This document shows, piece by piece, positions 38,118 to 51,124 of a stretch of DNA of 55,371 bases. Origin of the DNA: Bdellovibrionales bacterium (lineage in GTDB: Bacteria; Bdellovibrionota; Bdellovibrionia; Bdellovibrionales; JAMPXM01); contig SYLX01000104.1 in the NCBI GenBank assembly GCA_005808505.1, positions 1-55,371 of the forward strand, in the 5' to 3' direction. How positions within the stretch are numbered: the stretch's first letter is position 1; every line of letters starts with the position of its first letter. The position numbers and the translations under genes were made by a program. The notes under the pieces are model-generated. The model ran no database searches. It was not told the DNA's origin and saw only the letters and a program-made list of their open reading frames with translations.

Positions 38118-39323
38118 TCACACGTCGATCTTGATTTCAGGTCGAGCCTGGTTCCCCTTCTCGAGTTCTTTGATGGTCTTTTCTGCGTCGGACGTGATTT
38201 TGTCGAGTTCCAGGACTGTCGACGCCATCTGCGGGAGCGCATTAACTCGGAACTGCGAGAGATCCGTGAGCGCCTGATTGATATCCGCGAACGCCGATTT
38301 GAGTGAGTTCATATCGATTTGCGCCGAAGCCGCCTGCTTTTGGATTTGAACGCCTTGGGTTTTGAGACGCGCCGATGTGTTCGCAATCAAATCCGAAGTC
38401 GTCTTGTTCACCGATTCAATTTTATCGAGAACAATTTTTTGATTCGCGAGGGCCATCGCAACCGTAGCTGCAACTTGCAGTGCGTTTACGGTTACGTTGA
38501 GAGCCCGGTCCACACCCCGCGCGAGCTCTTTGTTATTTCGCACGATCAGTTCCGTCGCAAGAATGCCCTGTTGATTGACCGCAAGCTGCTGTTGAAGATC
38601 GATGATTCGCTGGCGGAGCGGGAACATGAGTTCTTCTGCGATGAACTTATGCTTCGGATCTGTCGGTGCAATCTCTCGATCGAGTTTGTATTGAAGCTTT
38701 TGATCGATCAGCTGACCGAGCTTAATGGCTTTCTCGAGTCGCACGGTCATCTCACGCATGCGTTTTTGATCTTCACCGAGGGTGATATTGTCACGAAGGA
38801 GTTGATCCTTACCTTGCTCAAGCGAACGCACGACAGAGGCGATCACGGTCTGCGCGCTTTCAAACTTTGTGAAGTAGCGCTTCAGAGGCGAGCCGATCCC
38901 CGGTAACGCTCCAAGAGCGCGCGAAAACCAACCTGGTTCAAAATCGAATTTTGCGGGGTCAAGCTCCTCGACCTTCATCTTCAGGTCAATCAAGGCATTC
39001 GCAACGTCGCCTCCGTCTTCGGCTCGGCCGGAGAGTTTTTTCACGGGCTGTTGCAAGAGACTCATTTGCCGACCCGCCTCTTTTTGAACTTCAGCTCCCA
39101 TGGTTTCGACGGCGGTTTTGCCCTCTTCGCCCGCCGTTGGCGCTTGCGGATCTAAACTCGCAAGAAGGTTTGCGAAGTGATCAGCTTTCGCGTCGAGATC
39201 TTGATCCTGACCTGGGCGGATTTCGATCGCCTGCGGTTTTGTCAGCTGAAGGTCTTTTACGATTTCCGTAGGGGTCGCTACCTTCAACGCAGTTCCGGGC
39301 GCCGTGTTTGCCGTGTCAGCCAT
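38118..39323 (-). CDS. TelA/YaaN-like toxic-anion-resistance family protein
   Basis: About 400-aa all-helical protein whose size and organisation resemble Bacillus YaaN/TelA. It is paired with an XpaC-like gene, as in B. subtilis xpaC-yaaN. Confidence 0.45.
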   Translation of the reverse strand: MADTANTAPGTALKVATPTEIVKDLQLTKPQAIEIRPGQDQDLDAKADHFANLLASLDPQAPTAGEEGKTAVETMGAEVQKEAGRQMSLLQQPVKKLSGRAEDGGDVANALIDLKMKVEELDPAKFDFEPGWFSRALGALPGIGSPLKRYFTKFESAQTVIASVVRSLEQGKDQLLRDNITLGEDQKRMREMTVRLEKAIKLGQLIDQKLQYKLDREIAPTDPKHKFIAEELMFPLRQRIIDLQQQLAVNQQGILATELIVRNNKELARGVDRALNVTVNALQVAATVAMALANQKIVLDKIESVNKTTSDLIANTSARLKTQGVQIQKQAASAQIDMNSLKSAFADINQALTDLSQFRVNALPQMASTVLELDKITSDAEKTIKELEKGNQARPEIKIDV

Positions 39324-39388
39324 GAGCAGATCCTTTCTCGTTATTCTTTGCCATTACTCAATATGAGGTCGCCGCGCCTGGAAAAATT

Positions 39389-40246
39389 TTAGCGCGGCTT
39401 TGAATACTTACTCACTCGCTTTGCGAGTTCTTCGAGGTCTTTCACTGATTGATCGAGGTCTCGCGACGCTTGGCCGCGTCCCGTGTCGATCTCGTTCAGC
39501 GCCGAGGTAATGCGCTGGAGTTCCAAAAGTGCTTTTTCATTTGCCTGCAATCGATCGATGAGATCTGAAAGTGTCTTCTCCCGAACGGCGAGCTGATCTT
39601 TCACGATTGCAAGTTCACGCCTTTCCTTCTCCGGTAAATCGTTGCGGTCCGCAAGACTCTGAACGCGCTTTAAGAGATGCCTTGAATCGATCGATGTGAG
39701 GTTTTGAAAAAGACCCACGACACTCTGCAGACTATCCATCACGCCGAGAAAAACTTGTTCACCCGCTCCGAGGTAGCGGTCGTAAGTGATCTCACCGCGA
39801 TCAAACTTTTGGTCAAGACTCGAGCGGAAGTTTTTGTATCTCTTTAGGGCCTGATCGTACTGAGTTTGCGCGCGAGTCACGTTCTCTTCGTCGAGATTTT
39901 CGAGAAACTGACTTTTCGAAAGAGCGCGCCGAATACCTTTATGCACGTCCGTTTCAAAACTTTGCGCCTGCGCCAGCTGCGCCGCCTCGATGGATTCGCG
40001 ATTTTTTAAGTAGAGGATCCACCCTGGAACAGCGAGAAAGAAAAATCCGAAAGCAAGAACCCATGCAAACGGCGATCCCGTGAAAAGCGCCCCAACAACG
40101 ATGATCGAACCAGTCACAAAAGGAATTTTGAAGTCGCCGTCTTTCACGATCTTCGAAACAGGTAAGCCTGACGCGCGAGTTTGCGGCAAACGGCTTTTTC
40201 CTGAATCTGCTGCATTCCCTTGTTTGTTCTGCGGAAGGTCGGCCAT
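39389..40246 (-). CDS. XpaC-like membrane protein (5-bromo-4-chloroindolyl phosphate hydrolysis protein family)
   Basis: Two adjacent N-terminal TM helices followed by a coiled-coil domain, lying immediately upstream of the TelA-like gene. Confidence 0.4.
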   Translation of the reverse strand: MADLPQNKQGNAADSGKSRLPQTRASGLPVSKIVKDGDFKIPFVTGSIIVVGALFTGSPFAWVLAFGFFFLAVPGWILYLKNRESIEAAQLAQAQSFETDVHKGIRRALSKSQFLENLDEENVTRAQTQYDQALKRYKNFRSSLDQKFDRGEITYDRYLGAGEQVFLGVMDSLQSVVGLFQNLTSIDSRHLLKRVQSLADRNDLPEKERRELAIVKDQLAVREKTLSDLIDRLQANEKALLELQRITSALNEIDTGRGQASRDLDQSVKDLEELAKRVSKYSKPR

Positions 40247-40555
40247 TGTTTACCTGGTTCTCAATTCAATCTTCGCTGAGGAAGCGATCTTCGAAACCCA
40301 CTGCTTAGAAGATCAGATTTTTGGAGCCTCACCACAAGCGTTTCCTGTGAGTCTTTCGCAAATTAGCTCGGAAATCCACCTTCGAGAAGCCATCCTGAAC
40401 GAAGGATGATCAATCTGCGCGGATTGTAGGCAATTTGTTTAATGCGTTTTCGCAAGAGCTAACTTTCGCGTCGCACAAACCGCTAGCCATGCGGCCTATT
40501 TCCTATTTACGCTTGAGTCGAAACGATAAACGAGCCTGGAAGGGAATGGTGTTGC

Positions 40556-41560
40556 ATGGGTCTTTTCAGCTTCTTCAAAAAACAGTTTCTCGATGTTTTG
40601 GAGTGGACCGAAGACTCAAACGGAGTTCTCGCCTTCCGGTTCCCCATGCAGGATCGCGAAATTCAGAATGGCGCTCAACTGACCGTTCGGGACACGCAAG
40701 TGGCCCTTTTCGTTAACGAAGGCGAAATTGCCGATCTTTTTGAGCCAGGTCGCCACCAGCTGAACACCGGAAACTTGCCGATGCTCACGAATCTGAAGAA
40801 CTGGGACAAGTTCTTCGAATCCCCGTTCAAATCGGATGTGTACTTTTTCTCAACGAGAGAACAGCTAGACCAACGTTGGGGAACGACAACACCGATCACC
40901 GTGCGCGATAAAGAGTTCGGACCTATCCGCCTACGTGCGCACGGAACGTATTCGTTTCGCATCAAAAACCCACGCGTGTTTTTCAAGAAGGTCAGCGGAA
41001 CAAGAGACCTTGTGACGGTTGAGGATCTCCAAGGTCAGCTCCGTGCCACGGTCCTGACGTCGCTTGCGACATTCTTCGGTTCGGGTCAGGTCGCTTTCCT
41101 TGACATGGCCGCAAACCAGACAAAGTTCTCTGAGACTTTGAAAGAAGCGCTTGATCCTGCCTTCAATGAATATGGGCTCGCGCTCGCTTCATTCTATGTC
41201 CAAAGCATTTCGCTTCCGGATGAGCTTCAAGCTCATCTCGATAAGGTGGCCGGAATGCGCATGGTGGGCGATCTTCGCAAATACGCTCAGTTCCAAACAG
41301 CCGACAGTCTCACCGCGGCGGCTACGAACCCCGGCGGAGCTGCTGGCGCAGGCGCAAGTTTAGGCGCTGGCCTCGCGATGGGCCAAGCGATGGCGAATGC
41401 GCTTTCGGGTCCAGGCTCCGGCTTTGGGGATAATTCAGGAACTCCGTCCGAAGATCCGCTCACGACGATCAGCAAGCTCCACGATTTGATGACGAAGGGT
41501 GTGATTTCGCAGACTGAGTTCGAGGCAAAGAAAGCAGAGCTTCTCAAGAAGATCACATGA
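40556..41560 (+). CDS. SPFH/Band-7 domain protein with C-terminal SHOCT domain (YdjI-like)
   Basis: N-terminus MGLFSFFKKQFLDVLEWTED typical of the YdjI-type Band_7 family. C-terminal SHOCT (ISKLHDLMTKGVISQTEFEAKKAELLKKI). Confidence 0.7.
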   Translation: MGLFSFFKKQFLDVLEWTEDSNGVLAFRFPMQDREIQNGAQLTVRDTQVALFVNEGEIADLFEPGRHQLNTGNLPMLTNLKNWDKFFESPFKSDVYFFSTREQLDQRWGTTTPITVRDKEFGPIRLRAHGTYSFRIKNPRVFFKKVSGTRDLVTVEDLQGQLRATVLTSLATFFGSGQVAFLDMAANQTKFSETLKEALDPAFNEYGLALASFYVQSISLPDELQAHLDKVAGMRMVGDLRKYAQFQTADSLTAAATNPGGAAGAGASLGAGLAMGQAMANALSGPGSGFGDNSGTPSEDPLTTISKLHDLMTKGVISQTEFEAKKAELLKKIT

Positions 41561-42195
41561 AACTTCTTTGCCCAGCTTGCGGCGGCGAAGTCGCGTTCAA
41601 ATCGAAGTGGTCCGTGTTCGGAGTTTGCCCTTACTGCGCCTCGATGCTTGTGCGTAGGGACCTGGACGTGGAAAACTTGGGCAAACAAAGCGCGATGCCC
41701 GCTGACTTTAGCCCTTTGCAACTAGGTACACGGGGCCGTATTGAGTCCGCTTCTTTTGAACTCGTTGGCCGACTGAAAATTGGTTGGGTCGACGGAAACT
41801 GGAACGAGTGGTATGCCGCTTTCGACGATGGACGCGATGGTTGGATCTCAGATGCCGAAGGACTTTTTACTCTCTCGTTTCAAAAACGAGACGTCTCGAG
41901 GACTCCGGGAGTTTCCGACTTCAAAGCCGGCGACCAGATCACGTTGTTGGGGAAAACTTTCGAAGTGAGCGACATTAAACAAGTCACTTGTCTTGCAACG
42001 GAAGGTGAACTCCCGTTTGCAAGCCGTGCCGGGCGCAAAAGTACGAGCATTGACCTGCACGGCTCCGACGACACGTTCTGTACGCTCGATTTTGGCGACG
42101 ATGAGAAATCCGAGCCGCCGATCATCTATCTCGGGACTTCGCGCGAATTCGAAGATTTTCAATTCAATCACTTGAGGGAATTCGATGGCTGGTGA
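41557..42195 (+). CDS. zinc-ribbon + DUF4178 domain protein (YdjG/YdjH-like)
   Basis: CPACGG...CPYCAS zinc ribbon, then a W-rich DUF4178-like core (NWNEWYAAFDDGRDGWI). ATGA overlap with the upstream stop. Confidence 0.6.
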   Translation: MKLLCPACGGEVAFKSKWSVFGVCPYCASMLVRRDLDVENLGKQSAMPADFSPLQLGTRGRIESASFELVGRLKIGWVDGNWNEWYAAFDDGRDGWISDAEGLFTLSFQKRDVSRTPGVSDFKAGDQITLLGKTFEVSDIKQVTCLATEGELPFASRAGRKSTSIDLHGSDDTFCTLDFGDDEKSEPPIIYLGTSREFEDFQFNHLREFDGW

Positions 42196-43891
42196 ACTAA
42201 AGGTGGGGTCACCAGGCGCGCCCTCGGCGACCCCGCAGCCAAAGGTTTTCGCTTGCCCCTCGTGCGGCGCAAACATCACGATCCGTGCCGTTGGTTTAAC
42301 GATTTCCGCAGCCTGCGGGTCTTGCGGCTCCGTCATCGATGTCGCTGACGAGAATCACAAGATTCTCTCGAAGGCCGCAAAGAATCTAAACATCGAGCCT
42401 CTCATTCCCCTTGGAACGAAGGGAAAGTTCAAAGGAAACGTTTGGCAAGTCATCGGCTTCATGAGGAGATCCGACGACACGGGCTCGTTCGTTTGGGAAG
42501 AATACTTTCTCTTCAATCCTCTGAAAGGGTTTCGTTGGCTCACTCAGGGTGAAGGTCACTGGAACTTCGTTCTTCGCACTACAAACAAACCTTCAAACAA
42601 TTTTCATCGGGGCGTTCATTATCTCGACAAAGATTATCGTCTCTTCCATTCGGGTTCGGCGAAAGTTCTCTTCGTTGTCGGAGAGTTCAGCTGGCGCGTA
42701 AAGGTCGGCGATCAGGCGGTGGTGAAGGACTTCATCAATCCTCCCGAAATTCTCTCGATGGAGAAGCTCAAAGATGAAGTGAGTTGGAGCATCGGTGAGT
42801 ACGTCGAGCCAGAGGATGTGCAGGCAGCTTTTTCGATCGATCAGACAAAGATGCCAGCACGTTGGCGAACAGCTCCTAACCAACCTTCTGCGGCTTCGCA
42901 ATTGGCGCCCACACTTTGGAAGTACGCGGTCTGTTTTATTGGGCTGCTCTTCTTCATCCAGTTGCTGACGATGATCTTCTCGCGCGGTGAACAAATCTTC
43001 GCGCAGAAGTTCACGCTGAACAGCATGGATAAAGATGTCGTGCAAGTGAGCCAACCTTTCGACCTCAAAAAAGCGCGGAATACCCTCGCTTTCCAGCTCT
43101 GGGCTGACGTGAACAACGCTTGGCTCGCCACCGAAGTTGATTTGGTCAACGAATCAAACGGCGAAACGGTCTCGTTTGAACAAGGAGTTGAGTACTACAG
43201 CGGCTCTGATTACGACGGACATTGGAGTGAAGGAACACGTACGCACGAAGCGGTGCTGTCCGACATCCCTGCGGGTCGGTACCACCTAGTGTTGCGACCT
43301 CAGGGCTCGATGCTCGAATCGAATTCATCGGTAGTTCCCGCAACGGCGCCGCCTCCTGAGCCAGCTTCTGTACTTCCCGAACAAAATCCTGGTGCGACGG
43401 TGCAGCCCGATCTCATCAAACAATCTTGGCCTAACGGACAAGTGAAGTCGCTCGAGCCTCTCAAAGACGGGAAATTCGACGGAATCGCGCACTACTATCA
43501 CGACAACGGAAAGATGTACGCGTCGATTCCGTGGGTGCAAGGTCGCAAACACGGACACTTCACCTTGTTCCGCTCTGATGGATCACGCGAACAAGAACTC
43601 AGTTACAAACATGGTTTGCCTCACGGACAAATCATTTTCTTCGATAACAACGGCACCGTTTCAGCCATTCAAAATTACGAAAATGGCGTCCTTGTCGATC
43701 GTGCGCAGCCAACGGCAGCGAACTTTTCGATCTCCGTTATCCGCGGCGTGGTGATTTGGCAGAACTTCCTCATTGCATTGCCTCTCCTCGCGCTGATCCC
43801 GCTCTTTATCGCTTGGCGACGGCATTCGGTTGAGTATGAACGTTGGTCTCAAAGCGACTACTCCCCCTACCCGAGCCACCACGGAGAATAA
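42185..43891 (+). CDS. multidomain membrane protein: zinc-ribbon + DUF4178 + TM + MORN-variant repeats + C-terminal TM
   Basis: FACPSCGAN...CGSCGS zinc ribbon, a DUF4178-like block (EEYFLFNPLKGFRWLTQGEGHWNFVL), TM helix (YAVCFIGLLFFIQLLTMIF), MORN-variant repeats (GIAHYYHDNGKMYASIPWVQGRKHGHFTLF...) and a terminal TM. GAGGGA RBS. Confidence 0.6.
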   Translation: MAGELKVGSPGAPSATPQPKVFACPSCGANITIRAVGLTISAACGSCGSVIDVADENHKILSKAAKNLNIEPLIPLGTKGKFKGNVWQVIGFMRRSDDTGSFVWEEYFLFNPLKGFRWLTQGEGHWNFVLRTTNKPSNNFHRGVHYLDKDYRLFHSGSAKVLFVVGEFSWRVKVGDQAVVKDFINPPEILSMEKLKDEVSWSIGEYVEPEDVQAAFSIDQTKMPARWRTAPNQPSAASQLAPTLWKYAVCFIGLLFFIQLLTMIFSRGEQIFAQKFTLNSMDKDVVQVSQPFDLKKARNTLAFQLWADVNNAWLATEVDLVNESNGETVSFEQGVEYYSGSDYDGHWSEGTRTHEAVLSDIPAGRYHLVLRPQGSMLESNSSVVPATAPPPEPASVLPEQNPGATVQPDLIKQSWPNGQVKSLEPLKDGKFDGIAHYYHDNGKMYASIPWVQGRKHGHFTLFRSDGSREQELSYKHGLPHGQIIFFDNNGTVSAIQNYENGVLVDRAQPTAANFSISVIRGVVIWQNFLIALPLLALIPLFIAWRRHSVEYERWSQSDYSPYPSHHGE

Positions 43892-43893
43892 GA

Positions 43894-44085
43894 GTGAAGC
43901 TTCTTCGTTTTTACGCCGCTGCAGCTTTCGTCCTGTGCACATACGTCGCGTGGTCGAACTATTCGGGCTACATGCCTCTTGGGGGCACGGCTACCGAAAA
44001 ATGGGGACCTGAAGGAAAGAAAAACACCGGAGCCTCGCGCGGCGGCAGCTATGGCCGCTCATGGGGCGGCGGATATCACAAGTAA
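43894..44085 (+). CDS. small single-TM protein with Gly-rich tail
   Basis: GGAGAA RBS 5 nt before GTG 43894. N-terminal TM (FYAAAAFVLCTYVAW), then ...GGSYGRSWGGGYHK. Confidence 0.4.
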   Translation: MKLLRFYAAAAFVLCTYVAWSNYSGYMPLGGTATEKWGPEGKKNTGASRGGSYGRSWGGGYHK

Positions 44086-44103
44086 TCAAAGGAGAGTACA
44101 ATC

Positions 44104-44325
44104 ATGGAAGGTATGATCGTGAATCCGCACGCAGTTGCGAATGCATTGGTTTTCTCAGTTCTTGGGCTCGGGATGCTCGCAATTTCATTTATCGTTTTCG
44201 ATAAGCTGACGCCGGGCCACCTTTGGAAACACATTGTTGAAGATCAGAACGTCGCTCTAGCGATCACCGCCAGTGCCTTCGTGATTTCCATGTCGATCAT
44301 CATCGCGATGTCGATCCGCGGATAA
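44104..44325 (+). CDS. DUF350 small membrane protein
   Basis: AAGGAGAG RBS. Two-TM, 73-aa protein matching the DUF350 pattern (ALVFSVLGLGMLAISFIVFDKLTPG...). Confidence 0.65.
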   Translation: MEGMIVNPHAVANALVFSVLGLGMLAISFIVFDKLTPGHLWKHIVEDQNVALAITASAFVISMSIIIAMSIRG

Positions 44326-44329
44326 AGAC

Positions 44330-45826
44330 ATGTCGTTTGTTCTTCTCTTTTCGGTTTTCGTCATTGCAACCTGCGGGTTGATCTACGAGCTGATCGCGAG
44401 CGCGCTTGCGAGCTATCTCCTCGGGGACTCGATCACTCAATTTTCGACGATCATCGGCGTCTATCTTTTCTCGATGGGGATCGGATCCTTTCTTTCTAAG
44501 TACGTGAGCCGCAACCTTATCTCCGTCTTTGTTCGCGTCGAGTTCTTGATCGGACTTGTCGGTGGCACATCGGCAGCATTGCTTTTTCTACTTTTTGAGC
44601 AGGTCTCGTCCTTTCGGATCCTACTCTACTCGATCGTTTCGCTCACCGGAACGCTTGTTGGACTAGAGATCCCATTGCTCATGCGAATTCTGCAAGAGAA
44701 GTTCGAGTTCAAAGATCTCGTGGCGCGTGTGTTCACGTTCGATTACATCGGCGCTTTGCTTGCTTCACTCCTCTTCCCGCTCGTGCTCGTTCCGCATCTG
44801 GGCCTGGTTCGATCGGCGTTTCTCTTTGGTGCCGTCAACGTCATCGTTGGCCTATGGACGCTTCATCTTTTTAAAAGCGATGTGGCCTGGCCGAGAGCTC
44901 TTCGCGCAGGCGCTATCGGAATTTTGATCTTCCTCGTGACTGGTTTTGTCCTCTCCGATCGCATCATGAGTTTTGCGGAGACGTCGAGCTATCCGGATAA
45001 AGTTGTGTACGCGAAGTCGTCGCCTTATCAGCGCATCGTACTTACGCGCTCGCATAACGACACGCGCCTCTTTCTGAACGGCAATCTTCAGTTCAGCACG
45101 CGCGATGAATACCGCTATCACGAAGCGCTCGTTCACGTGGGCCTCGCTACGCTTGAGAATCCTAAAAAAGTTCTCGTGCTCGGCGGTGGAGATGGTCTCG
45201 CCGTTCGCGAGATCCTGAAGTATCCGAGTGTCGAGTCGATTACGCTTGTCGACCTCGACGCCGCGATGACTTCTCTCTTTCATAATCACGCGGACCTTTC
45301 AGCTCTCAACGGCGGAGCATTGCGCTCTCCGAAAGTGAAGATCATTAACACCGACGCGTTTTTATGGATCAAAGAGAACCGCGAAGTCTTTGATTTCATC
45401 GCCGTGGACTTTCCGGATCCTTCGAACTTCTCGATCGGCAAGCTCTATACGACAAGCTTCTACAAGAATCTGATCGCAGCCGTGCATGATAATGGCCTCG
45501 TTGTCATTCAAAGCACATCTCCTTACGTTGCTAAAAAATCTTTCAGCTGCATCAACACCACGCTTGAAGCGGCGGGCTTTATGACAACTCCGTATCACGC
45601 GTTCGTTCCCTCGTTTGGGGAATGGGGCTACGTGATCGGGACTAAGAAACCTTTTACTGCTCCGACTCGCTTTCCTGAGGGTTTGAAGTTCGTCAATCCC
45701 TCGACGGTCGCTACGATGCTTCAGTTCCCGCCGGATATGATGGTGGCTAAGACCGAGGTGAATCGTCTGAATAACCAGATCCTCGTGAGATATTTTGAAG
45801 ATGAGTGGTCCGAATACGTCAGATAA
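44330..45826 (+). CDS. membrane-embedded polyamine aminopropyltransferase (spermidine/spermine-synthase-like)
   Basis: About 200-aa multi-TM N-terminal domain fused to a spermidine-synthase fold (VLVLGGGDGLAVREIL...VDLD...DFPDP). Confidence 0.75.
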   Translation: MSFVLLFSVFVIATCGLIYELIASALASYLLGDSITQFSTIIGVYLFSMGIGSFLSKYVSRNLISVFVRVEFLIGLVGGTSAALLFLLFEQVSSFRILLYSIVSLTGTLVGLEIPLLMRILQEKFEFKDLVARVFTFDYIGALLASLLFPLVLVPHLGLVRSAFLFGAVNVIVGLWTLHLFKSDVAWPRALRAGAIGILIFLVTGFVLSDRIMSFAETSSYPDKVVYAKSSPYQRIVLTRSHNDTRLFLNGNLQFSTRDEYRYHEALVHVGLATLENPKKVLVLGGGDGLAVREILKYPSVESITLVDLDAAMTSLFHNHADLSALNGGALRSPKVKIINTDAFLWIKENREVFDFIAVDFPDPSNFSIGKLYTTSFYKNLIAAVHDNGLVVIQSTSPYVAKKSFSCINTTLEAAGFMTTPYHAFVPSFGEWGYVIGTKKPFTAPTRFPEGLKFVNPSTVATMLQFPPDMMVAKTEVNRLNNQILVRYFEDEWSEYVR

Positions 45827-47519
45827 AAAACTCCTCACCCGTCGGCAAGTCACGGCTCTTTTGGGTCTTGCCGGAGTCGGAACGGTCGCTGCAGCCGTCG
45901 CAAAGACGGCGGGCTTCGAGCGATTGTCTTCTTTGGTTGGCGGCAGCTCGACGGCTGCAGGACAAGTGATTCCGGGTCAGCTTCTAGGCGCGTCCCACAA
46001 AGTTGGACACATCCTGCGTCAACTTCCGAAAGATAAACCAGCACGGACGATCACGACTGGAATCGCGATCGTTGGCGGAGGGATCTCGGGCCTCTCCGCT
46101 GCCTACATGTTGAAGAAAAAAGGGTATGAAGATTTCCAACTTTTTGAACTTGAGAACGAGGTTGGTGGAAACTCAAGTTCAGGAGAAAACGGAGTTTCAG
46201 CGCATCCTTGGGGTGCGCACTATGTGCCTCTTCTAGGCAATGATGCCACCGAAGCTCACGAACTTTTCAAAGACCTCGGAATTATCGAAGGCGTCGATGC
46301 CGAAGGACGAGCGATCTACAACGAGGATTATCTTTGTGCCGATCCGCATGATCGTCTATTCCACCATGGCATTTGGCAAGAGGGCTTAGTGCCTAAATCG
46401 GGTCTTACGGATCACGAACAATCGCAATACCAGCAGTTTTTTTCGTTTTTGGAGAGACTCAAACACACTCGTGGAAAAGACGGAAAACCAGCCTTCACTA
46501 TTCCGGCCGATCGAAGTTCTCGAGATCCTGAATTTTTAAAGTACGACCAGATCACGATGGCGGAGTTCATGCGCCAAAATGGTTGGGAGGCGGGTTCGCT
46601 TCTCTGGTACGTCGAGTACTGTTGCCGCGACGATTATGGAACAGGAATTGATCAGGTCTCCGCGTGGGCGGGTCTCCATTATTTCGCTTCGCGAAGCGGT
46701 ATAGCTGCAAATGCGGATTCGCAAACGGTCCTCACGTGGCCCGAAGGAAACGGCTGGATCGTAAAAAAGCTGCGCGAAAAAGTTTCCTCCCAGCTTCGCT
46801 GCGGACAACTTGTTTACAATGTCGAAACGGATCAAAGCACCGGGGATGTCTTAGTCGACACGATCACGACTGGCTCGGGCGAAACTCTACGCATTCGCGC
46901 AAAGAGCGCGATCTTCGCAGCTCCCCAATTCATTGCGGGTCGAGTGGTAAAGAAGTTGCGTGAAGCTCCGCCCGAATACCTTCGTGACTTCACTTATGCG
47001 CCCTGGCTTGTCGCAAACGTCACTTTGAAGTCGGTGCCGCCTGGACCTGGTGTTGGTCTTTGTTGGGATAACGTGAGCGTCGCGAGTCGATCACTGGGAT
47101 ACATCAATGCGACTCACCAGTTGATTCCGCTTACGCCTGGTCCGACCGTAGTTACGTACTACCGACCGCTTGATGAGCGCGATCCTTTGACCGAACGGCG
47201 TGAAGCCTTGACCAAGACTCAAGCGCAATGGGCGGAGGAAGTCGCAAAAGATCTTGAATCGATGCACCCTTCCATTCGCCGCGAAATTTTGAATATTGAT
47301 GTTTGGGTTTGGGGTCACGCGATGCTTAGGCCCTTACCTGGTTTTATCACGGGAGAAAGTCGCAAGAACGCGGCTCGGCCTCTCGACCGAATCCTTTTCG
47401 CTCACTCGGATCTCTCCGGCATTCCGATTTTTGAAGAAGCTCATGCTCGCGGAACTCAAGCCGCTTTAAAGGCGCTGGAGTTTCTTTCGCGTCCGCGGAA
47501 CAATTTGGCGGGGATCTGA
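45801..47519 (+). CDS. Tat-exported FAD-dependent amine-oxidase-family oxidoreductase
   Basis: Twin-arginine signal (TRRQVTALLGLAGVGTVAAAVA) and an FAD dinucleotide fold (IAIVGGGISGLSAAYML). It overlaps the upstream gene by 26 nt. Confidence 0.65.
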   Translation: MSGPNTSDKKLLTRRQVTALLGLAGVGTVAAAVAKTAGFERLSSLVGGSSTAAGQVIPGQLLGASHKVGHILRQLPKDKPARTITTGIAIVGGGISGLSAAYMLKKKGYEDFQLFELENEVGGNSSSGENGVSAHPWGAHYVPLLGNDATEAHELFKDLGIIEGVDAEGRAIYNEDYLCADPHDRLFHHGIWQEGLVPKSGLTDHEQSQYQQFFSFLERLKHTRGKDGKPAFTIPADRSSRDPEFLKYDQITMAEFMRQNGWEAGSLLWYVEYCCRDDYGTGIDQVSAWAGLHYFASRSGIAANADSQTVLTWPEGNGWIVKKLREKVSSQLRCGQLVYNVETDQSTGDVLVDTITTGSGETLRIRAKSAIFAAPQFIAGRVVKKLREAPPEYLRDFTYAPWLVANVTLKSVPPGPGVGLCWDNVSVASRSLGYINATHQLIPLTPGPTVVTYYRPLDERDPLTERREALTKTQAQWAEEVAKDLESMHPSIRREILNIDVWVWGHAMLRPLPGFITGESRKNAARPLDRILFAHSDLSGIPIFEEAHARGTQAALKALEFLSRPRNNLAGI

Positions 47520-47522
47520 AAG

Positions 47523-48623
47523 ATGTTGAGTCAGGCGCAAAGGTCTCGCCAACCGTGGATCCACTCGGCCGCTTTTGATCTCGTCTTCATTTTAGCGCCG
47601 GCGCTTCTGGTGACTTTGTTCGTTCTGGCGCGGCCGGATTGGTTTTCCGGCCCTGTAGCCGTTTCGCCGCTTGCATGGCTTTTGCTCGTTTTGTGCGTGG
47701 ATGTGAGCCATGTCTACTCGACTCTATACAAAACTTATTTTGATCCCGCGGAGTTCCGTGAACGGCGCACGCTCTACACTCTTGTTCCTCTTTTCGTGTG
47801 GCTTGCGGGAGTTGTGCTTTACTCGTTCGGCGCGTTGGCTTTCTGGCGCACGCTCGCTTACTTAGCCGTGTTTCACTTTGTCAGGCAGCAGTACGGCTTC
47901 ATGCGCTTATACTCGGTGGAAGACAATCGCGGTGCGCGATTGTTGAACGCGGCCGCAATCTACGCGGCGACTCTTTATCCACTCGTCTATTGGCACACCA
48001 ATCTCCCCCGTCAGTTTCAGTGGTTTGTTGAAGGAGACTTCGTTTCACTGCCTTGGTCGTGGCTTGAGTCGGTTGCCTTCATCGCTTATGTTGCCGTGCT
48101 CAGTTTATATCTCTTGAAAGAAGTGTGGGTAGGATGGCGGCGGCGAAGTGTGAACTTACCGAGGAATCTCCTGCTTATCGGAACGGCGCTTTCTTGGTAC
48201 GTCGGAATTGTGACCTTCAACGGTGATCTCGCGTTTACTGCTACTAACGTGATCGCGCACGGGCTTCCGTATCTCGCGTTGATTTGGATCACGGGACGCA
48301 AGCGCGAAAGCTCCTTGATCTTCGGAGTAAGGCGCGGATGGGTTTTCGGCGCGATGGCAGCGCCGCTTTTCGTGGGCTTTCTAGTAGTTTTAGCTTTCGT
48401 TGAAGAAGGCTTTTGGGATGCGCTCGTTTGGCGCGATCACACATCGATCTTTGGATTGTTCTCTTTCCTGCCGCAACTTACGGACGCGGCTCTACTGGCG
48501 TTCGTCGTTCCGCTTCTCGCCGTGCCGCAAGCGACTCATTACGTCTTAGACGGATTTATTTGGCGTCGCGGTCGCGTTGTCGCGGCCAGTGAAACAGCGG
48601 CACCAGTTCGTGCGGCTTCGTGA
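47523..48623 (+). CDS. polytopic His-rich integral membrane protein (unknown function)
   Basis: About 9 TM helices with conserved-looking His positions (VDVSHVYS, FHFVRQQYGF, VIAHGLPY, ATHYVLDGF). Starts 3 nt after the upstream stop. Confidence 0.5.
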   Translation: MLSQAQRSRQPWIHSAAFDLVFILAPALLVTLFVLARPDWFSGPVAVSPLAWLLLVLCVDVSHVYSTLYKTYFDPAEFRERRTLYTLVPLFVWLAGVVLYSFGALAFWRTLAYLAVFHFVRQQYGFMRLYSVEDNRGARLLNAAAIYAATLYPLVYWHTNLPRQFQWFVEGDFVSLPWSWLESVAFIAYVAVLSLYLLKEVWVGWRRRSVNLPRNLLLIGTALSWYVGIVTFNGDLAFTATNVIAHGLPYLALIWITGRKRESSLIFGVRRGWVFGAMAAPLFVGFLVVLAFVEEGFWDALVWRDHTSIFGLFSFLPQLTDAALLAFVVPLLAVPQATHYVLDGFIWRRGRVVAASETAAPVRAAS

Positions 48624-48766: not shown

Positions 48767-51124
48767 TCAGCGAAATGGCCGCGCCTGCTTAATGATGATC
48801 GTGCGTGAGGGGCCGTAGATCTTCCACTCAACGTCGATCGCGAAGTCATAAAAATCCTTCTGATAGATCTTCGCGAGTTCGCCGTGTACGTAATGAAGTG
48901 CACGTGCAAGCTCCCGCAGCTCATCGCGCTTTCCCGCGTCAGAGGACTGACCAGAAATCTCGCCCGCTGCTTTTAAAACGGTTTCGCCGTTTTTAACTGA
49001 AGAGGATCGGACACGTTCGAACGGCCACTTCTTCCACGCACCAGCCTTCGCATTGTCGTCGGGGTTCGCGAGGAACGTTGTAACCAACGTCTCCTCTGTC
49101 ACGTAGGACTTCGTTGGATCTTCGCCGACTTCGACCAATTCCTCCTTGGTCGGAGGGTTCGTCACTGCAAGATCATAGTGTTGAGCGTTGATGTAGATCT
49201 TGCCGTCTTCTTCAAAGTTGTAAATGTTTGCGGTGATCGCGACGCCGTTTGCAACTTCCCCTTCTTTGCCGTCGAAATCCAAGCGCGGGAAGGCGCCGTG
49301 AACCGCCAATCCGACTTTGATGTCTAGATGCTGAGAACCGTTCATCGAGTACCACTCGCGCTCAAGGAAAGCGCGTTCGTTCCAGACACCTGCGTAGAGG
49401 CTTGGGATATCTTTGCGAAGATCTTCTTCAATCTTCTCCCACTTCTTCGGCTCGTTGCGATCGAAGCCCTTCTTCTTTTTATAGAGGTTGATCCCGAGCG
49501 AGTCGTAGAGACCTGCGCCCGTGAAGCCTTCTAGGTCTTCGGAGTTCGTGCTGCTGCGGAAGCGGAGGCGCGGATGCTTCGAGATATAAAGAGGCGACGT
49601 CGTATCTTCCATGATCGCGTGGCGAAGAAGATCAACTAAACGCTGCGGGAGTTGCGCACGTGAAACTACGGCGCGAACTTCTTCCAGCGTCGGGCGCACG
49701 ACCGAAATCGAATGAATTTTATCTGGATTGAGCAGATCGCCCTTGTTCAAAATCTCAACGATTCTCTCCTGTGGAGTCATCACCCGCTCAGGATTGGCGG
49801 AGTCGAGACCTTTTTGTTTCAAGTTGATGAATTGCTCATAGAAGTTAAAAGGAATCCCAACCGTATCGGGTGAGATTAAAGTTTCGCTCTTCACGCGGCT
49901 AATGACTTGCGAGAGAACACCGAGGTTCGCCGCTTTTGCTCCCACGATCTGAACCAGACGCGAGTGCTCCTTGCGCGTCGGGCGTTTTTTAAAATACGTG
50001 TCGAGACGGACCAGCTCATTGTCGTAGCGTGGATCAAGAATAAAGCTTGGCTTTCCATTAAGCTTTGGCTTTTTCGATTTCCAGAACGCGGCGATTTGCG
50101 CTTCGGCCTTTGCAGAATCAAGTTCGCGGATCGTGTACTTCGAACCTTCCACACGCAGCTCCACGGCTTTTCCTTCGTACGCACGTAAGGCTTGCTTCGC
50201 GTCTTTCAGATACATGTTCGCGGTGCCGCGGTTCATGCTCTTGACGTTGACGTGCGAGAGCGGTGTTTGCGGCTCCGCCGTCACTACTCCGCCGACAAGG
50301 CCAATTTCGTTCGGAACTTGATCGAACACAGCAATGTCTTTGATTTCAAGTGGCGAAATTCCTGGTCCGCTCACGTTGACGAAACGGACGTATCCGTAAG
50401 CCACTCCCTCGTTCAAAGCCAGATAAGTGATATTTCCCAGAAGATCTTTGGTGAGAACGTAATCCGCCGGAGCAAAGTTCTTCACGACCATTTGCTCCTG
50501 CTCAACACTGAGAGGATGAATCTTCAACTTCAAACTTTTCGGAAGAGAGTCCTGGATATCGCTCGCGAGGCTCAAGAGACCCTGAGCATCCATCGTATCC
50601 CCGCTCCAGAGTTCTAAAAGTGCCGGAGCGCCAACCTTCGTCGGAAGAATCACCGAAGCCAAAGCATATTCACGCTCTGTCAAAGGCCCACTATAGTTAC
50701 GATTGAACTCTTCATTGCCGCGGTTGAAGCCGAGCACTTCACTCGCGTACGAAAAGTGATATTGATACTTCTTCGTGTTGATGAAATGAACTTTACGACC
50801 CGACTTCGCATTGACGTCGTAAACAACTTTGACGACAAGATTTTCGCTCACGCCGATTTTCATACGGCGAGCAAGTTTCTCAAGACCTTCGACTGAAGAG
50901 TCATTCGTTACGTCCGCGACGACTCCGGCCTTCGGTGCTTTTTGAAGTGAGGGCGGAGCGAAACCAGCTGCAGGCGCTTGCTGAACCTGAGAGCGTAAAG
51001 GTTCCAGGCAAACCTGGGGTCCGACGGGACGCTTAGGTGTACCGGGCGGACATTCAGCTCCGTAAGCGTAAGTGCTGTGAACAACGATCGTCATCAGCGC
51101 AAGGAGCAGGCGGCGAGCTGTCAT
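48767..51124 (-). CDS. secreted PEP-utiliser-type protein: phosphohistidine (mobile) -like domain + PPDK_N ATP-binding domain
   Basis: Signal peptide, a mobile-domain-like block (GGVVTAEPQTPLSHVNVKSMNRGTANM), PPDK_N hallmarks (IVGAKAANLGVL; RFRSSTNSEDLEGFTGAGLYDS; C-terminal ...IIIKQARP). GGAGG RBS. Confidence 0.65.
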   Translation of the reverse strand: MTARRLLLALMTIVVHSTYAYGAECPPGTPKRPVGPQVCLEPLRSQVQQAPAAGFAPPSLQKAPKAGVVADVTNDSSVEGLEKLARRMKIGVSENLVVKVVYDVNAKSGRKVHFINTKKYQYHFSYASEVLGFNRGNEEFNRNYSGPLTEREYALASVILPTKVGAPALLELWSGDTMDAQGLLSLASDIQDSLPKSLKLKIHPLSVEQEQMVVKNFAPADYVLTKDLLGNITYLALNEGVAYGYVRFVNVSGPGISPLEIKDIAVFDQVPNEIGLVGGVVTAEPQTPLSHVNVKSMNRGTANMYLKDAKQALRAYEGKAVELRVEGSKYTIRELDSAKAEAQIAAFWKSKKPKLNGKPSFILDPRYDNELVRLDTYFKKRPTRKEHSRLVQIVGAKAANLGVLSQVISRVKSETLISPDTVGIPFNFYEQFINLKQKGLDSANPERVMTPQERIVEILNKGDLLNPDKIHSISVVRPTLEEVRAVVSRAQLPQRLVDLLRHAIMEDTTSPLYISKHPRLRFRSSTNSEDLEGFTGAGLYDSLGINLYKKKKGFDRNEPKKWEKIEEDLRKDIPSLYAGVWNERAFLEREWYSMNGSQHLDIKVGLAVHGAFPRLDFDGKEGEVANGVAITANIYNFEEDGKIYINAQHYDLAVTNPPTKEELVEVGEDPTKSYVTEETLVTTFLANPDDNAKAGAWKKWPFERVRSSSVKNGETVLKAAGEISGQSSDAGKRDELRELARALHYVHGELAKIYQKDFYDFAIDVEWKIYGPSRTIIIKQARPFR

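Follow-up and report, generated by a model that had tools for sequence, protein, structure and literature searches.

The locus described here occupies positions 40556-48623 on the plus strand of the window, by which we refer to the entire analyzed stretch of 55,371 nucleotides from a Bdellovibrionales bacterium. It consists of eight co-directional open reading frames, designated g1 to g8, which either overlap or are 2-18 nt apart, and it is preceded by a divergent intergenic region:

Upstream gap, 40247-40555, no strand assigned: divergent intergenic region of 309 nt between a minus-strand 285-aa ORF and g1, presumed promoter or regulatory region.
g1, 40556-41560, plus strand: soluble SPFH protein (Band_7_1); a weakly hydrophobic linker rich in Gly and Ala leads to a SHOCT-like helix at the C-terminus.
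g2, 41557-42195, plus strand: soluble protein with zinc ribbon and DUF4178.
g3, 42185-43891, plus strand: zinc ribbon and DUF4178 (predicted cytoplasmic), TM segment, predicted extracytoplasmic segment with MORN_2, TM segment and short cytoplasmic tail.
g4, 43894-44085, plus strand: 63-aa protein; its N-terminal part is a hydrophobic helix (signal peptide or anchor), and it carries N-x-x-G-[YWF], a tail rich in Gly and Ser and the C-terminus ...YHK.
g5, 44104-44325, plus strand: DUF350 protein (YjfL family) in a 2-TM, half-size form.
g6, 44330-45826, plus strand: dcSAM-type aminopropyltransferase domain (PRK03612 family), preceded in the same protein by a 7-TM domain in which acidic residues within the membrane are conserved.
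g7, 45801-47519, plus strand: flavin amine oxidase with a predicted MAO/putrescine-oxidase fold and Tat signal.
g8, 47523-48623, plus strand: polytopic membrane protein of ~10 predicted helices whose family has no name; six His are invariant, as are Asp, Glu and Arg residues.

The compact organization of the locus is reflected in its junctions. The genes g1 and g2 have a common ATGA (41557-41560), g2 and g3 overlap by 11 nt (42185-42195) and g6 and g7 by 26 nt with the ATG of g7 located at 45801, and the latter two overlaps are identical in a Bdellovibrionales MAG. The stop of g3 at 43891 is separated by 2 nt from the GTG start of g4 at 43894, which is preceded by a GGAG 8 nt upstream, and gaps of 4 and 3 nt are found between g5 and g6 and between g7 and g8. 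In a first-pass annotation of the sequence, all junctions had been described as overlapping or within 1-12 nt, which is accurate for the overlaps and for the three short gaps but slightly off as a range, since g4 and g5 are 18 nt apart, in a gap carrying AGGAG. No match to a sigma-70 consensus and no Rfam family at E<=1 was detected in the 40247-40555 gap, and between 39300 and 49300 matches to promoter- and terminator-like consensus sequences are no commoner than in shuffled sequence. The base composition of the locus is ordinary. A TelA gene is located divergently upstream, both here and in the closest relative.

The eight genes constitute one tightly packed, conserved operon unit, and the coupled eight-gene unit proposed initially is thus retained, with an order that is kept across phyla. 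Its conservation was analyzed in 54 species-level genomes with informative loci. In all 54, which are distributed over many phyla, order and strand are the same, placing the arrangement far beyond chance and bearing out the conserved gene neighborhood that the first-pass annotation had named in advance as a test. In 52-54 of the 54 genomes, representing >10 phyla, the DUF4178 protein is followed in order by the small ORF, the DUF350 protein, the 7-TM aminopropyltransferase and the Tat flavin amine oxidase, with hosts that include Nitrospirota, Bacteroidota, Verrucomicrobiota, Melainabacteria, Alpha-, Beta- and Gammaproteobacteria, Leptospiraceae, Bdellovibrionota and Acidimicrobiia, and the operon neighbors in related genomes are of housekeeping type. 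Other genes are accessory, namely those encoding the 10-TM protein g8 (40/54), AdoMetDC (37/54) and the SPFH protein (27/54). Based on its frequency, AdoMetDC is a common but not obligatory constituent of this operon type. None was found in the 55-kb window, where tblastn searches with the 37 operon-linked AdoMetDCs gave chance matches only; the one that recurred, near 14.8 kb, corresponds to a 2H phosphoesterase. Ralstonia and Burkholderia have kept SpdSyn, oxidase, Band-7 and a 4-TM DUF350 protein, and no small Lys-ending ORF was found near their enzyme pair.

A Pfam run on each ORF recovered all the domains that had been predicted, namely Band_7_1, SHOCT, DUF4178, MORN_2, DUF350, Spermine_synth and Amino_oxidase, although SHOCT in g1 (1e-05, 25.5 bits) remains just below its gathering score of 27. 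The assignment of g1 to the SPFH proteins is based on Band_7_1 (1.9e-74) and Band_7 (3.7e-14). The protein is 69% identical to the copy in the Bdellovibrionales MAG and does not contain an N-terminal TM segment, and the low hydrophobicity of its Gly/Ala-rich stretch (about 255-290) leaves the '2TM' part of its architecture uncertain. Wherever a homologue of g1 is found, it is the first gene of the operon, and g2, which contains DUF4178 (1.9e-11) and a CPAC...CPYC pattern, is present in 26 of the 54 loci and co-varies with g1. In contrast, g3 (DUF4178 3.5e-19, MORN_2 30.8 bits) is found in 52 of the 54 loci. Its hydrophobic cores lie near 250-259 and 530-538, and its homologues are mostly about 425-440 aa long and devoid of MORN; judged by sequence comparison, the MORN_2 segment is a lineage-specific insertion.

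The most informative component of the operon is its smallest protein. The gene for g4 is absent from the annotation of the public source contig and the protein has no match in Pfam, NCBIfam, PADLOC or PHROG. It had been regarded as a passive Gly-rich TM protein, a view that we abandon, as g4 belongs to a conserved and so far unannotated family of 40-70 aa proteins, recognized here, in which a predicted hydrophobic helix at the N-terminus is followed by a tail of low complexity and the last residue is always Lys. An equivalent ORF ending in HK is found in 64 of 65 related genome loci, and the same ending in 170 of 172 database relatives, and the terminal Lys is also kept in 46 metagenome loci. 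In an alignment of 48 sequences with a mean identity of 18%, this His and Lys form the sole invariant columns. The charges flanking the hydrophobic helix predict an extracytoplasmic location of the tail. The HK ending is confined to oxidase-containing loci, whereas in those lacking the oxidase it is found in 0 of 22, which instead terminate on GK or VK, with one on TK, an association that is confounded by phylogeny.

The next two genes encode a DUF350 protein and the presumed transferase. In g5, DUF350 (3.6e-14) covers profile positions 5-66 of 133 and contains two hydrophobic cores, and a DUF350 protein is found in 53 of the 54 loci. The assignment of g6 is based on NCBIfam PRK03612 (668.9 bits compared to a cut-off of 472) and Spermine_synth (3.9e-40), whereas its score of 25.4 bits against the fused MFS/SpdSyn subfamily NF037959 is below the cut-off of 40. 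In alignment, g6 keeps every aminopropyltransferase active-site motif. Its residues Q254, DE260-261, YHE264-266, GGGDG285-289, D308xD310 and D360xxD363P align with the motifs of E. coli SpeE and comprise the Q...DE..YHE pattern, the dcSAM-binding GGGDG, the acidic ribose binder and the catalytic DxxDP, and they are at least 90% conserved in homologues. The second Asp of the latter motif, D363 in g6, binds the distal amine of the diamine in canonical enzymes. In 74 sequences, even loops of the membrane domain contain 9.4 Lys and Arg residues compared to 2.1 in odd loops, suggesting an intracellular N-terminus and, by the positive-inside rule only, an aminopropyltransferase domain that probably resides in the periplasm.

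Export is also predicted for g7. This protein matches Amino_oxidase and NAD_binding_8 (7.4e-13) and contains VGGGISG as N-terminal GxGxxG Rossmann motif for FAD-binding. Its AF2 model (pLDDT 79) displays the two-domain architecture of MAO-type enzymes, with bacterial MAO, putrescine oxidase, MAO-A/B and SpdH as top Foldseek matches at 14-18% identity (E 2e-22 and TM 0.60/0.75 for bacterial MAO and putrescine oxidase). The sequence TRRQVTALLGLAGVG... contains the twin arginine, in TRRQV, followed by a hydrophobic h-region as expected for a Tat signal, although it is off consensus at positions +2/+3; a canonical RRxFL motif is present in 15 of 24 homologues, several of which continue with a lipobox-like Cys. 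The last protein, g8, had been called His-rich, which does not describe a sequence with 7 His in 366 aa, though six of them are invariant in 32 homologues and, together with invariant acidic residues, suggest a metal site. For g8, neither a Pfam match nor a structural relative in the PDB was found.

Collectively, these features support the proposed union of an SPFH/DUF4178 module with an aminopropyltransferase and a flavin amine oxidase that is predicted to be exported. We favor, with moderate confidence, a mechanism where dcSAM-dependent aminopropyl transfer and flavin-dependent amine oxidation take place at the cytoplasmic membrane beside an SPFH scaffold, with the terminal Lys of g4 as possible acceptor. 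The first-pass annotation had envisaged that a polyamine-like compound is synthesized and turned over by oxidation, which is plausible, but the acceptor may not be a free polyamine. In the proposed mechanism, a sub-membrane SPFH/DUF4178 complex, anchored by g3, would consist of g1, g2 and the N-terminal portion of g3 on the cytoplasmic side, akin to YdjI recruited by YdjG/H. AdoMetDC, in this genome presumably encoded outside the window, would supply dcSAM, and the 7-TM aminopropyltransferase would act on a membrane-tethered amine instead of free putrescine, with its catalytic domain probably facing the periplasm and its acidic 7-TM domain delivering the cationic substrate. As leading candidate acceptor, the C-terminal Lys of g4 would be aminopropylated at its epsilon-amino group to give a spermidine-like tail, which the exported oxidase might then oxidize or trim with participation of the adjoining His, which occurs only in oxidase-containing loci. 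g8 and the DUF350 protein would serve as membrane partners. The mechanism draws on the conserved gene order, the AdoMetDC found within the operon in 37 of 54 loci, the intact motifs of g6 and the MAO fold and Tat signal of g7, and also on the invariant Lys of g4, the linkage of HK to the oxidase, the charge-based predictions of an extracytoplasmic location for parts of g4 and g6 and the parallel to the E. coli yjf operon. It is challenged by the absence of AdoMetDC from the window and by the periplasmic location of the catalytic domain, which would necessitate an export of dcSAM that is, to our knowledge, unprecedented. The retained D363 would be better suited to a free diamine or polyamine than to a Lys with its alpha-carboxylate, and the lack of a small Lys-ending ORF near the enzyme pair of Ralstonia and Burkholderia implies that the g4 peptide is not a universal acceptor unless it is encoded elsewhere. 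In its most specific form, g6 would be a protein-modifying enzyme at the periplasmic face, which uses exported dcSAM to aminopropylate the C-terminal Lys of g4 on its epsilon-amine, and the Tat oxidase would erase or convert the resulting tail with involvement of the adjacent His. Although this version is speculative and rather unlikely in all its parts, it would, if true, define a novel post-translational modification in bacteria, be the first case of dcSAM being used outside the cytoplasm and reveal a purpose of 'polyamine-independent' AdoMetDC/SpdSyn pairs.

The same evidence can be read in other ways. Metabolism of free polyamines at the envelope is a possible but not a likely explanation. 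In this case, g6 would use a free diamine to produce spermidine, norspermidine or a similar polyamine, which would be exported through the 7-TM domain of the enzyme. The oxidase in the periplasm would break the product down or interconvert it, as from spermidine to 1,3-diaminopropane, and the small protein, DUF350 and g8 would play accessory roles. Such metabolism would account for the conservation of every canonical aminopropyltransferase residue, both Asp of DxxDP among them, for the nearest solved folds of g7, which include the Tat-exported SpdH (a spermidine dehydrogenase), putrescine oxidase and a bacterial MAO that binds putrescine, and for the enzyme pair of Ralstonia and Burkholderia that persists without the small ORF. 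A precedent is found in surface-localized spermidine, which, according to the reference to Johnson et al. (2012) in PMC11107197, protects the outer membrane of P. aeruginosa. This explanation leaves open why a variable small protein would carry an invariant terminal Lys beside the enzyme in >100 loci and why DUF4178 and DUF350 are strictly linked. It is also at odds with the related fusions of Li et al. (2019), which reportedly occur in organisms without spermidine and fail to rescue an E. coli speE mutant. A short peptide that varies except for a constant C-terminal dipeptide, and that is encoded next to modifying enzymes, is a typical sign of peptide-derived natural products and cofactors. 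The dipeptide of g4 would fit this pattern if the protein were the scaffold of a RiPP-like pathway, whose C-terminal (His-)Lys is aminopropylated and oxidized and whose product is released as diffusible small molecule or cofactor, with g8, which follows the oxidase in 40 of 54 loci and contains the suggested metal site, as membrane-embedded processing enzyme. We consider such a pathway improbable, as no protease, radical-SAM or other recognizable RiPP enzyme was found, and as g8 shows no detectable similarity to any peptidase fold and is missing from 14 of 54 loci that still carry HK peptides.

Two further proposals relate the locus to stress and defense. In a reading offered by Ravi et al. 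(2024), the enzymes would mainly act as ligand sensors of a PSP-type stress system, in which SPFH/DUF4178 proteins monitor the polyamine or membrane state, with PspA encoded elsewhere. Although homologous enzyme genes are found in PspA-CesT/Tir operons of other bacteria, YdjI-type SPFH proteins recruit PspA in B. subtilis and the TelA gene lies upstream in divergent orientation, as in the closest relative, the strong conservation of the g6 active site and of the FAD-binding region of g7, as in working enzymes, the lack of the SPFH gene in half of the related loci and the absence of PspA from the window make a primary sensory role appear quite doubtful. A function in anti-phage defense or as cargo of a mobile element is effectively refuted already. 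SPFH and SHOCT domains do occur in some defense islands and g6 shows a weak PADLOC match to mad2, a methyltransferase-fold protein, but PADLOC matches are confined to this generic fold and to a FAD-fold, PHROG matches are restricted to the SHOCT and SPFH segments of g1, and the ordinary base composition, vertical conservation across phyla and housekeeping-type neighbors argue against either origin.

The preferred mechanism of aminopropyl transfer and amine oxidation at the membrane can be placed among known systems. The resemblance of the first three genes to B. subtilis pspA-ydjGHI (samGHI), which had been noted initially, probably holds for g1 and, more generally, for the pairing of a soluble SPFH protein with membrane proteins bearing cytoplasmic zinc ribbons. 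It does not extend to g2 and g3, where no TPM_phosphatase but only DUF4178 was found, whereas the published architectures, with which they were compared, describe YdjG as ZnR+NTF2-like+TM and YdjH as TPM-domain protein (Ravi et al., 2024, PMC11237479; Scholz et al., 2021). In B. subtilis, the membrane proteins YdjG/H recruit the SPFH protein, which in turn recruits PspA, as described by Scholz et al. (2021). YdjI, which was likened to g1 by description, ends in a zinc finger and g1 in SHOCT, and the B. subtilis operon does not contain enzymes. No PspA_IM30 match was obtained among the 40 ORFs scanned in the window, in agreement with the first-pass annotation. The flavin amine-oxidase fold is common to g7, P. 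aeruginosa SpdH and bacterial putrescine and monoamine oxidases, but sequence identity is just 14-18% and similarity is limited to ~80-105 N-terminal residues covering the FAD-binding region and, in SpdH, also the signal region.

Among aminopropyltransferases, g6 resembles MFS/TM-fused SpdSyn-like proteins that are reportedly clustered with class 1b AdoMetDC and DUF350 (Li, Kurihara, Kim, Liang and Michael, 2019, Biochem J 476:2579). These are said to make no spermidine and have reportedly been proposed to aminopropylate a substrate other than putrescine. The likeness concerns the N-terminal polytopic domain preceding a SpdSyn-like domain and the clustering with AdoMetDC and DUF350, whereas g6 is a member of PRK03612 and not of NF037959. 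A sister operon type is found in E. coli, where yjfIJKLMC (and ygiBC) combine DUF350 (YjfL) and DUF1190 (YjfM) proteins with the ATP-grasp peptide-spermidine ligases YjfC/YgiC (Pederick et al., 2023, Biochemistry 62:899). There, as in our locus, the DUF350 gene yjfL adjoins a gene for an anchored low-complexity protein with Gly/Ser/Arg-rich C-terminal tail (yjfM), followed by a potential peptide-polyamine enzyme, YjfC, annotated as peptide--spermidine ligase. However, the E. coli chemistry is an ATP-dependent amide ligation of spermidine instead of dcSAM-dependent aminopropyl transfer, YjfM ends in ...GHWGG and not in Lys, and the operon contains PspA (YjfJ) and CesT/Tir (YjfI) but no oxidase, DUF4178 or SPFH protein.

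The closest correspondence is to operons described by Ravi et al. (2024, mSystems, PMC11237479), where 7TM-spermine-synthase, DUF350 and DUF4178 accompany PspA and where, in PspA-free variants, Band-7+2TM+SHOCT replaces the PspA dyad and AdoMetDC and polyamine oxidase are added; the same authors cite Li et al. (2019) for aminopropylation of other substrates. The first-pass annotation had considered the combination to be uncharacterized, which is correct for experiments, as our literature search found none on any operon member, but not for computation, where it is on record in that study. Its passages on these operons name the small partner in Shewanella 'lipoprotein (Ctha_1186 domain)+low complexity' and make no mention of an invariant C-terminal Lys; this partner may belong to the same family as g4. 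Our locus differs from the PspA-free variant in the lack of AdoMetDC in the window and in its two DUF4178 genes, the MORN insertion and the 10-TM protein g8, which is not mentioned in those passages. It agrees in the 7TM-spermine-synthase-like enzyme, DUF350 (YjfL), DUF4178, the low-complexity exported protein adjoining DUF350, Band-7/SHOCT in place of the CesT/Tir-PspA dyad and the polyamine oxidase (g7). The locus is thus one member of a widespread family, whose operon class has already been described computationally.

The operon at 40556-48623 belongs to a known, computationally defined family, and its novel aspect resides in an overlooked small protein whose invariant C-terminal lysine makes it a candidate target of polyamine-independent aminopropyltransferases. 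This view is based on a reading of the window against about 170 related loci. As proposed in the first-pass annotation, the eight-gene operon is real, with eight open reading frames on the + strand filling the interval exactly, as evident from the ORF list and the junction sequences. The junctions described there are all correct except for the gap between g4 and g5, which spans 18 nt and not at most 12. The domains predicted for the encoded proteins (Band_7_1, SHOCT, DUF4178, MORN_2, DUF350, Spermine_synth and Amino_oxidase) were all matched in searches of Pfam and NCBIfam, in which g4 and g8 gave no match, and zinc ribbons of the form CxxC...CxxC are visible in the translations of g2 and g3.

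Genes of the operon with junctions and domain matches
g1, 40556-41560, + strand: SPFH protein; Band_7_1 1.9e-74, SHOCT 1e-05 (25.5 bits, just under the gathering score); ATGA overlap with g2
g2, 41557-42195, + strand: DUF4178 protein; DUF4178 1.9e-11; 11-nt overlap with g3
g3, 42185-43891, + strand: anchored DUF4178 protein; DUF4178 3.5e-19, MORN_2 30.8 bits; 2-nt gap before g4
g4, 43894-44085, + strand: small protein; GTG start with GGAG 8 nt upstream; 18-nt gap containing AGGAG before g5
g5, 44104-44325, + strand: DUF350 protein, half-length with 2 TM; DUF350 3.6e-14; 4-nt gap before g6
g6, 44330-45826, + strand: aminopropyltransferase; Spermine_synth 3.9e-40, NCBIfam PRK03612 668.9 bits (cut-off 472); 26-nt overlap with the g7 ATG at 45801
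g7, 45801-47519, + strand: oxidase; NAD_binding_8, Amino_oxidase, DAO; 3-nt gap before g8
g8, 47523-48623, + strand: polytopic membrane protein; next gene convergent

Consensus promoter-like and terminator-like sites between 39300 and 49300 were at or below shuffled expectation, and internal promoters or terminators were thus rejected, as was a regulatory RNA upstream of g1, where the 309-nt divergent region matched no Rfam family at E<=1. A reading as defence system was rejected after a PADLOC scan. PspA/IM30 was detected in none of the 40 window ORFs scanned against Pfam, in line with the PspA-less character assigned to the locus earlier. Searches of the window for AdoMetDC by tblastn with 37 operon-linked sequences and by Pfam found none; a candidate at 14.8 kb, which had given repeated weak tblastn matches, was dismissed as its ORF is a 2H phosphoesterase by Pfam. 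On its 5' side, the operon is flanked by a divergent pair (38118-40246, - strand) consisting of one gene of the TelA family (401 aa, Pfam 1.1e-66) and another for a 285-aa two-TM/coiled-coil protein that matches no Pfam model. The pair occupies the same position in the related Bdellovibrionales MAG locus L002 and occurs in none of the other 54 loci, with a homologue of the 285-aa protein also located upstream in locus L030, and it may constitute a lineage-specific envelope-stress partner. On the 3' side, a convergent gene (48767-51124) for a 785-aa PPDK_N-domain protein with signal-like N-terminus replaces the genes following g8 in L002 (12795-14230), where an AdoMetDC and an Acyl_transf_3 membrane acyltransferase each overlap the preceding gene by 4 nt.

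The conservation of the neighbourhood was surveyed in one genome per species with a profile of g7, which yielded 596 confirmed loci, the best 80 of which were kept and annotated by phmmer with the window proteins. In the 54 loci with enough flank for counts, gene order and strand are kept across phyla, with all counted components co-directional and their order unchanged. These comprise DUF4178 (52/54 loci), DUF350 and the 7TM-SpdSyn protein (53/54 each), g8 (40/54), AdoMetDC (37/54), Band_7_1 (27/54) and a second, soluble DUF4178 protein (26/54). The operon is distributed over Nitrospirota, Bacteroidota, Verrucomicrobiota, Melainabacteria (Obscuribacterales), Alpha-, Beta- and Gammaproteobacteria, Leptospiraceae, Bdellovibrionota/Oligoflexia, Acidimicrobiia, Acidobacteriota and Elusimicrobia, and its hosts include the genetically tractable soil bacteria Novosphingobium, Pedobacter, Hymenobacter and Labrys. 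Scored relatives number 7,830 for g7 and 5,388 for g8, at about 50-55% identity across phyla, and both often share contigs. An identical gene order was found in three neighbourhoods with precomputed Pfam calls, from Pontibacter (Bacteroidota), a Bdellovibrionales MAG and a Thermodesulfovibrionales MAG. The closest relative, L002 (g1 69%, g6 70% and TelA 64% identical), contains the eight genes as in the window, including the 11-nt and 26-nt overlaps.

A reduced, split form is found in plant and human pathogens, on the megaplasmid of Ralstonia solanacearum (L086) and on a chromosome 2-type replicon of Burkholderia cenocepacia (L088). There, aminopropyltransferase and oxidase reside on one strand and a 4-TM DUF350 protein and the SPFH protein are divergent, joined in Burkholderia by a soluble DUF4178 protein and AdoMetDC; the membrane-anchored DUF4178 protein, the small Lys-ending ORF and g8 are absent from both. 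A further architecture is represented by five oxidase-less metagenome loci (L129, L131, L137, L143 and L146), where a multi-repeat DUF350 protein of ~283 aa is encoded about 800 nt 5' of the aminopropyltransferase and the small Lys-ending ORF is missing.

The feature that defines g4 is its C-terminus. An ORF of 39-71 aa ending in HK-stop is located between the anchored DUF4178 gene and DUF350 in 64/65 genome loci, the sole exception ending in HGK. Such endings are rare, occurring in 67 of 7,802 ORFs of 35-80 aa in the surveyed loci, nearly all of which are g4 genes themselves. An alignment of 48 sequences, with 18% mean column identity, is invariant only in the last two columns, and the preceding residue is a tyrosine in 34/62 and aromatic or His in 45/62 sequences. 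When 1.84 billion representative proteins were searched with a profile, 180 clusters were retrieved, and 170 of the 172 sequences retrieved in two protein-database searches end in HK, a proportion that is partly circular as the profile contains this dipeptide. None of the 172 relatives carries a name or Pfam domain, the family has no match in Pfam, NCBIfam, PADLOC or PHROGs, and a word-seeded database search for a family name gave only 28 'hypothetical' proteins. On the source contig, a metagenome record in ENA (ERZ27257035, 67,277 bp), g4 is missing from the public annotation (window 43894-44085; L092, 8091-8304); homologues have been called in Pontibacter, a Bdellovibrionales MAG, a Thermodesulfovibrionales MAG and Novosphingobium ('hypothetical protein').

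The architecture of g4 consists of a short positive N-terminus, a single hydrophobic helix, a semi-conserved N-x-x-G-[YWF] motif and a Gly/Ser/Asn-rich tail with the terminal dipeptide. The charges flanking the helix (+2.3/-0.2 before, +1.0/-1.2 after) favour an orientation with the N-terminus inside and the C-terminus outside. A signal-peptidase site was rejected as the -3/-1 residues preceding the NxxG[YW] motif are inconsistent, and the helix could thus be a signal anchor or else a signal peptide that is cleaved off. Sampling of the wider 7TM-SpdSyn family began at a Tritonibacter locus that lacks the oxidase; of the metagenome loci with DUF350 adjoining the SpdSyn gene, 46/58 contain a small hydrophobic ORF with a terminal Lys.

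C-terminal dipeptides of the small ORF
Oxidase absent: GK 19, VK 2, TK 1 (an ORF that may be spurious), HK 0
Oxidase present: HK 7, GK 8

These counts point to the C-terminal lysine as the universal feature of the small protein, while the preceding His appears to track the oxidase, in an association that is confounded by phylogeny. The full-length 4-TM DUF350 variants found in Ralstonia, Burkholderia and several metagenome loci are accompanied by neither the small ORF nor the anchored DUF4178 protein; a fusion of the former to the long DUF350 was rejected since the 4-TM proteins do not end in Lys.

The two enzymes of the operon offer a candidate chemistry for this lysine, which would be aminopropylated by g6, with dcSAM from AdoMetDC as donor, before oxidation of the product by g7. 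The C-terminal domain of g6 aligns with E. coli SpeE and contains Q254, D260-E261, Y264-H265-E266, G285GGDG289, D308-x-D310 and D360-F-P-D363-P, each with a conservation of 90% or more among family members. With these motifs kept, it looks like a working dcSAM-dependent aminopropyltransferase. Its 7-TM domain is strongly conserved too, with acidic residues inside hydrophobic segments (E20, D33, E71, E113 and D138), which suggests a role in binding or conducting a cationic substrate and not that of a passive anchor. The model of g7 (pLDDT 79) best matches a putrescine-binding bacterial monoamine oxidase, putrescine oxidase, MAO-A/B, cyclohexylamine oxidase and spermidine dehydrogenase SpdH in the PDB (E 2e-22 to 1e-19, TM 0.55-0.62 on the query, 14-18% identity), with sequence-level matches confined to the ~80-105 N-terminal residues that form the FAD-binding region and, for SpdH, also the signal region. 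At its N-terminus, TRRQV precedes a hydrophobic stretch; a canonical S/T-RRxFL is found in 15/24 homologues, several with a lipobox-like Cys following, and Tat export is thus probable at the level of the family. In homologues of the Nitrospirota type, the Tat signal is followed by a lipobox-like (I/L)-S-C-(N/R/K), and the oxidase in these taxa may be a Tat-exported lipoprotein; g7 of the window has no Cys at this position.

Many bacterial genomes encode 'spermidine synthases' that are fused to membrane domains and accompanied by an AdoMetDC of their own. Related TM-fused SpdSyn proteins reportedly yield no spermidine, and a non-putrescine acceptor is said to have been proposed. The small protein makes the question of this acceptor directly testable by mass spectrometry.

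Less certain is the side of the membrane on which the reaction would proceed. In g6, which contains seven hydrophobic segments, the mean number of K+R in 74 homologues is 2.2, 4.1 and 3.1 in loops 2-3, 4-5 and 6-7, compared to 0, 1.0 and 1.1 in loops 1-2, 3-4 and 5-6. By the positive-inside rule, the N-terminus would be cytoplasmic and the catalytic domain following TM7 extracytoplasmic. The aminopropyltransferase domain, the Tat-exported oxidase, the tail of g4 and the central segment of g3 would then lie on one side of the membrane, with AdoMetDC, g1, g2 and the Zn-ribbon/DUF4178 part of g3 on the other, an arrangement that would require dcSAM to cross. Since such crossing of a membrane is, to our knowledge, unprecedented, we give the extracytoplasmic arrangement about an even chance of being correct.

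In g3, the MORN_2 repeats (residues about 420-510) fall within the predicted extracytoplasmic loop and constitute a lineage-specific insertion, the protein measuring 568 aa in the window and 425-440 aa in most relatives; homologues from Nitrospirota, where a single fused DUF4178 gene is found, reach about 640 aa. Across distant lineages, the short cytoplasmic tail following the last TM of anchored DUF4178 proteins carries an R-W-x-x-S-D-[YW] motif, as in the window (43800-43891, ...YERWSQSDYSPY), Tritonibacter (...RRWAKSDWTDEE) and Gemmatirosa (...RRWAESDAGSK). Outside the window, the tails compared lie at about 7500-7567 of L087 and about 7420-7480 of L089. The motif may serve as docking site for the SPFH or the soluble DUF4178 partner.

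The description of g8 as His-rich does not hold, with only 7 His in 366 residues. Six of these are invariant, and invariant Asp, Glu, Arg and Gln also occur, which suggests a catalytic or metal-binding membrane protein. Its AF2 model is confident (pLDDT 87.7, pTM 0.85) and shows about ten long helices. A Foldseek comparison with the PDB gave no meaningful match (best E 0.43, TM <0.23), phmmer against PDB sequences was uninformative, and six family members matched no Pfam model consistently at E<=10. No model match stands behind the names 'Tic20 family' and 'lycopene cyclase domain' given in the source, and both were discarded. With more than 5,000 relatives, the family is unnamed and has no Pfam model or solved structural relative. 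It adds to the value of the locus, as does the possibly periplasmic site of the dcSAM chemistry.

The functional reading of the first-pass annotation is reasonable in outline, although its novelty claim and the homology to YdjGHI were overstated. Working from comparative genomics alone, Ravi et al. (2024; PMC11237479) describe operons that encode PspA and CesT/Tir together with DUF350 (YjfL), DUF4178, a spermine/spermidine-synthase-like enzyme fused to a 7TM domain, and a 'novel lipoprotein (Ctha_1186)+low complexity'. They also describe variants free of PspA, in which a Band-7+2TM+SHOCT protein substitutes for the PspA dyad and AdoMetDC and a polyamine oxidase are encoded as well, essentially the family of the window. 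The type had thus already been described computationally; no paper was found that characterises any family member experimentally, in agreement with the earlier statement. Our literature searches also found nothing on bacterial protein aminopropylation and nothing useful on the topology or function of Rv2599-Rv2601. The proposed mirroring of ydjGHI by the first three genes holds, at the family level, only for g1. B. subtilis YdjI is a soluble SPFH protein with C-terminal zinc finger, and two membrane proteins, YdjG and YdjH, recruit it (Scholz et al., 2021); Ravi et al. (2024) give these as a ZnR+NTF2-like+TM and a TPM-domain protein, respectively. By these descriptions, the relation of g2 and g3 to YdjG and YdjH is one of analogy only, as zinc-ribbon membrane partners of an SPFH protein. 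The operon system is linked to SPFH and PspA envelope-maintenance modules.

A parallel for g4 is offered by a sister operon type, listed by Ravi et al. (2024) as ATP-grasp GspS-like ligase, DUF350 and DUF1190. In E. coli K-12 (locus L173, 4410133-4414191, yjfIJKLMC), yjfL, which encodes the DUF350 protein, is followed by yjfM and yjfC. YjfM, a DUF1190 protein, is anchored at its N-terminus and has a Gly/Ser/Arg-rich tail that ends in ...GHWGG and resembles the g4 tail in composition. YjfC, named 'peptide--spermidine ligase' in RefSeq, has this activity according to Pederick et al. (2023). YjfM could be the peptide that YjfC modifies physiologically, with YgiB in the same role for YgiC. It is a weakness of the parallel that YjfC is cytoplasmic whereas a periplasmic location is predicted for the tail of YjfM. 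N-epsilon-aminopropyl-lysine comprises an aminobutyl-aminopropyl chain and thus a spermidine-like moiety. We therefore infer that the two sister operon types could reach a common end point, a spermidine-like C-terminal tail on a tethered low-complexity protein, which would be obtained by amide ligation in the E. coli type and by aminopropylation in the g6 type.
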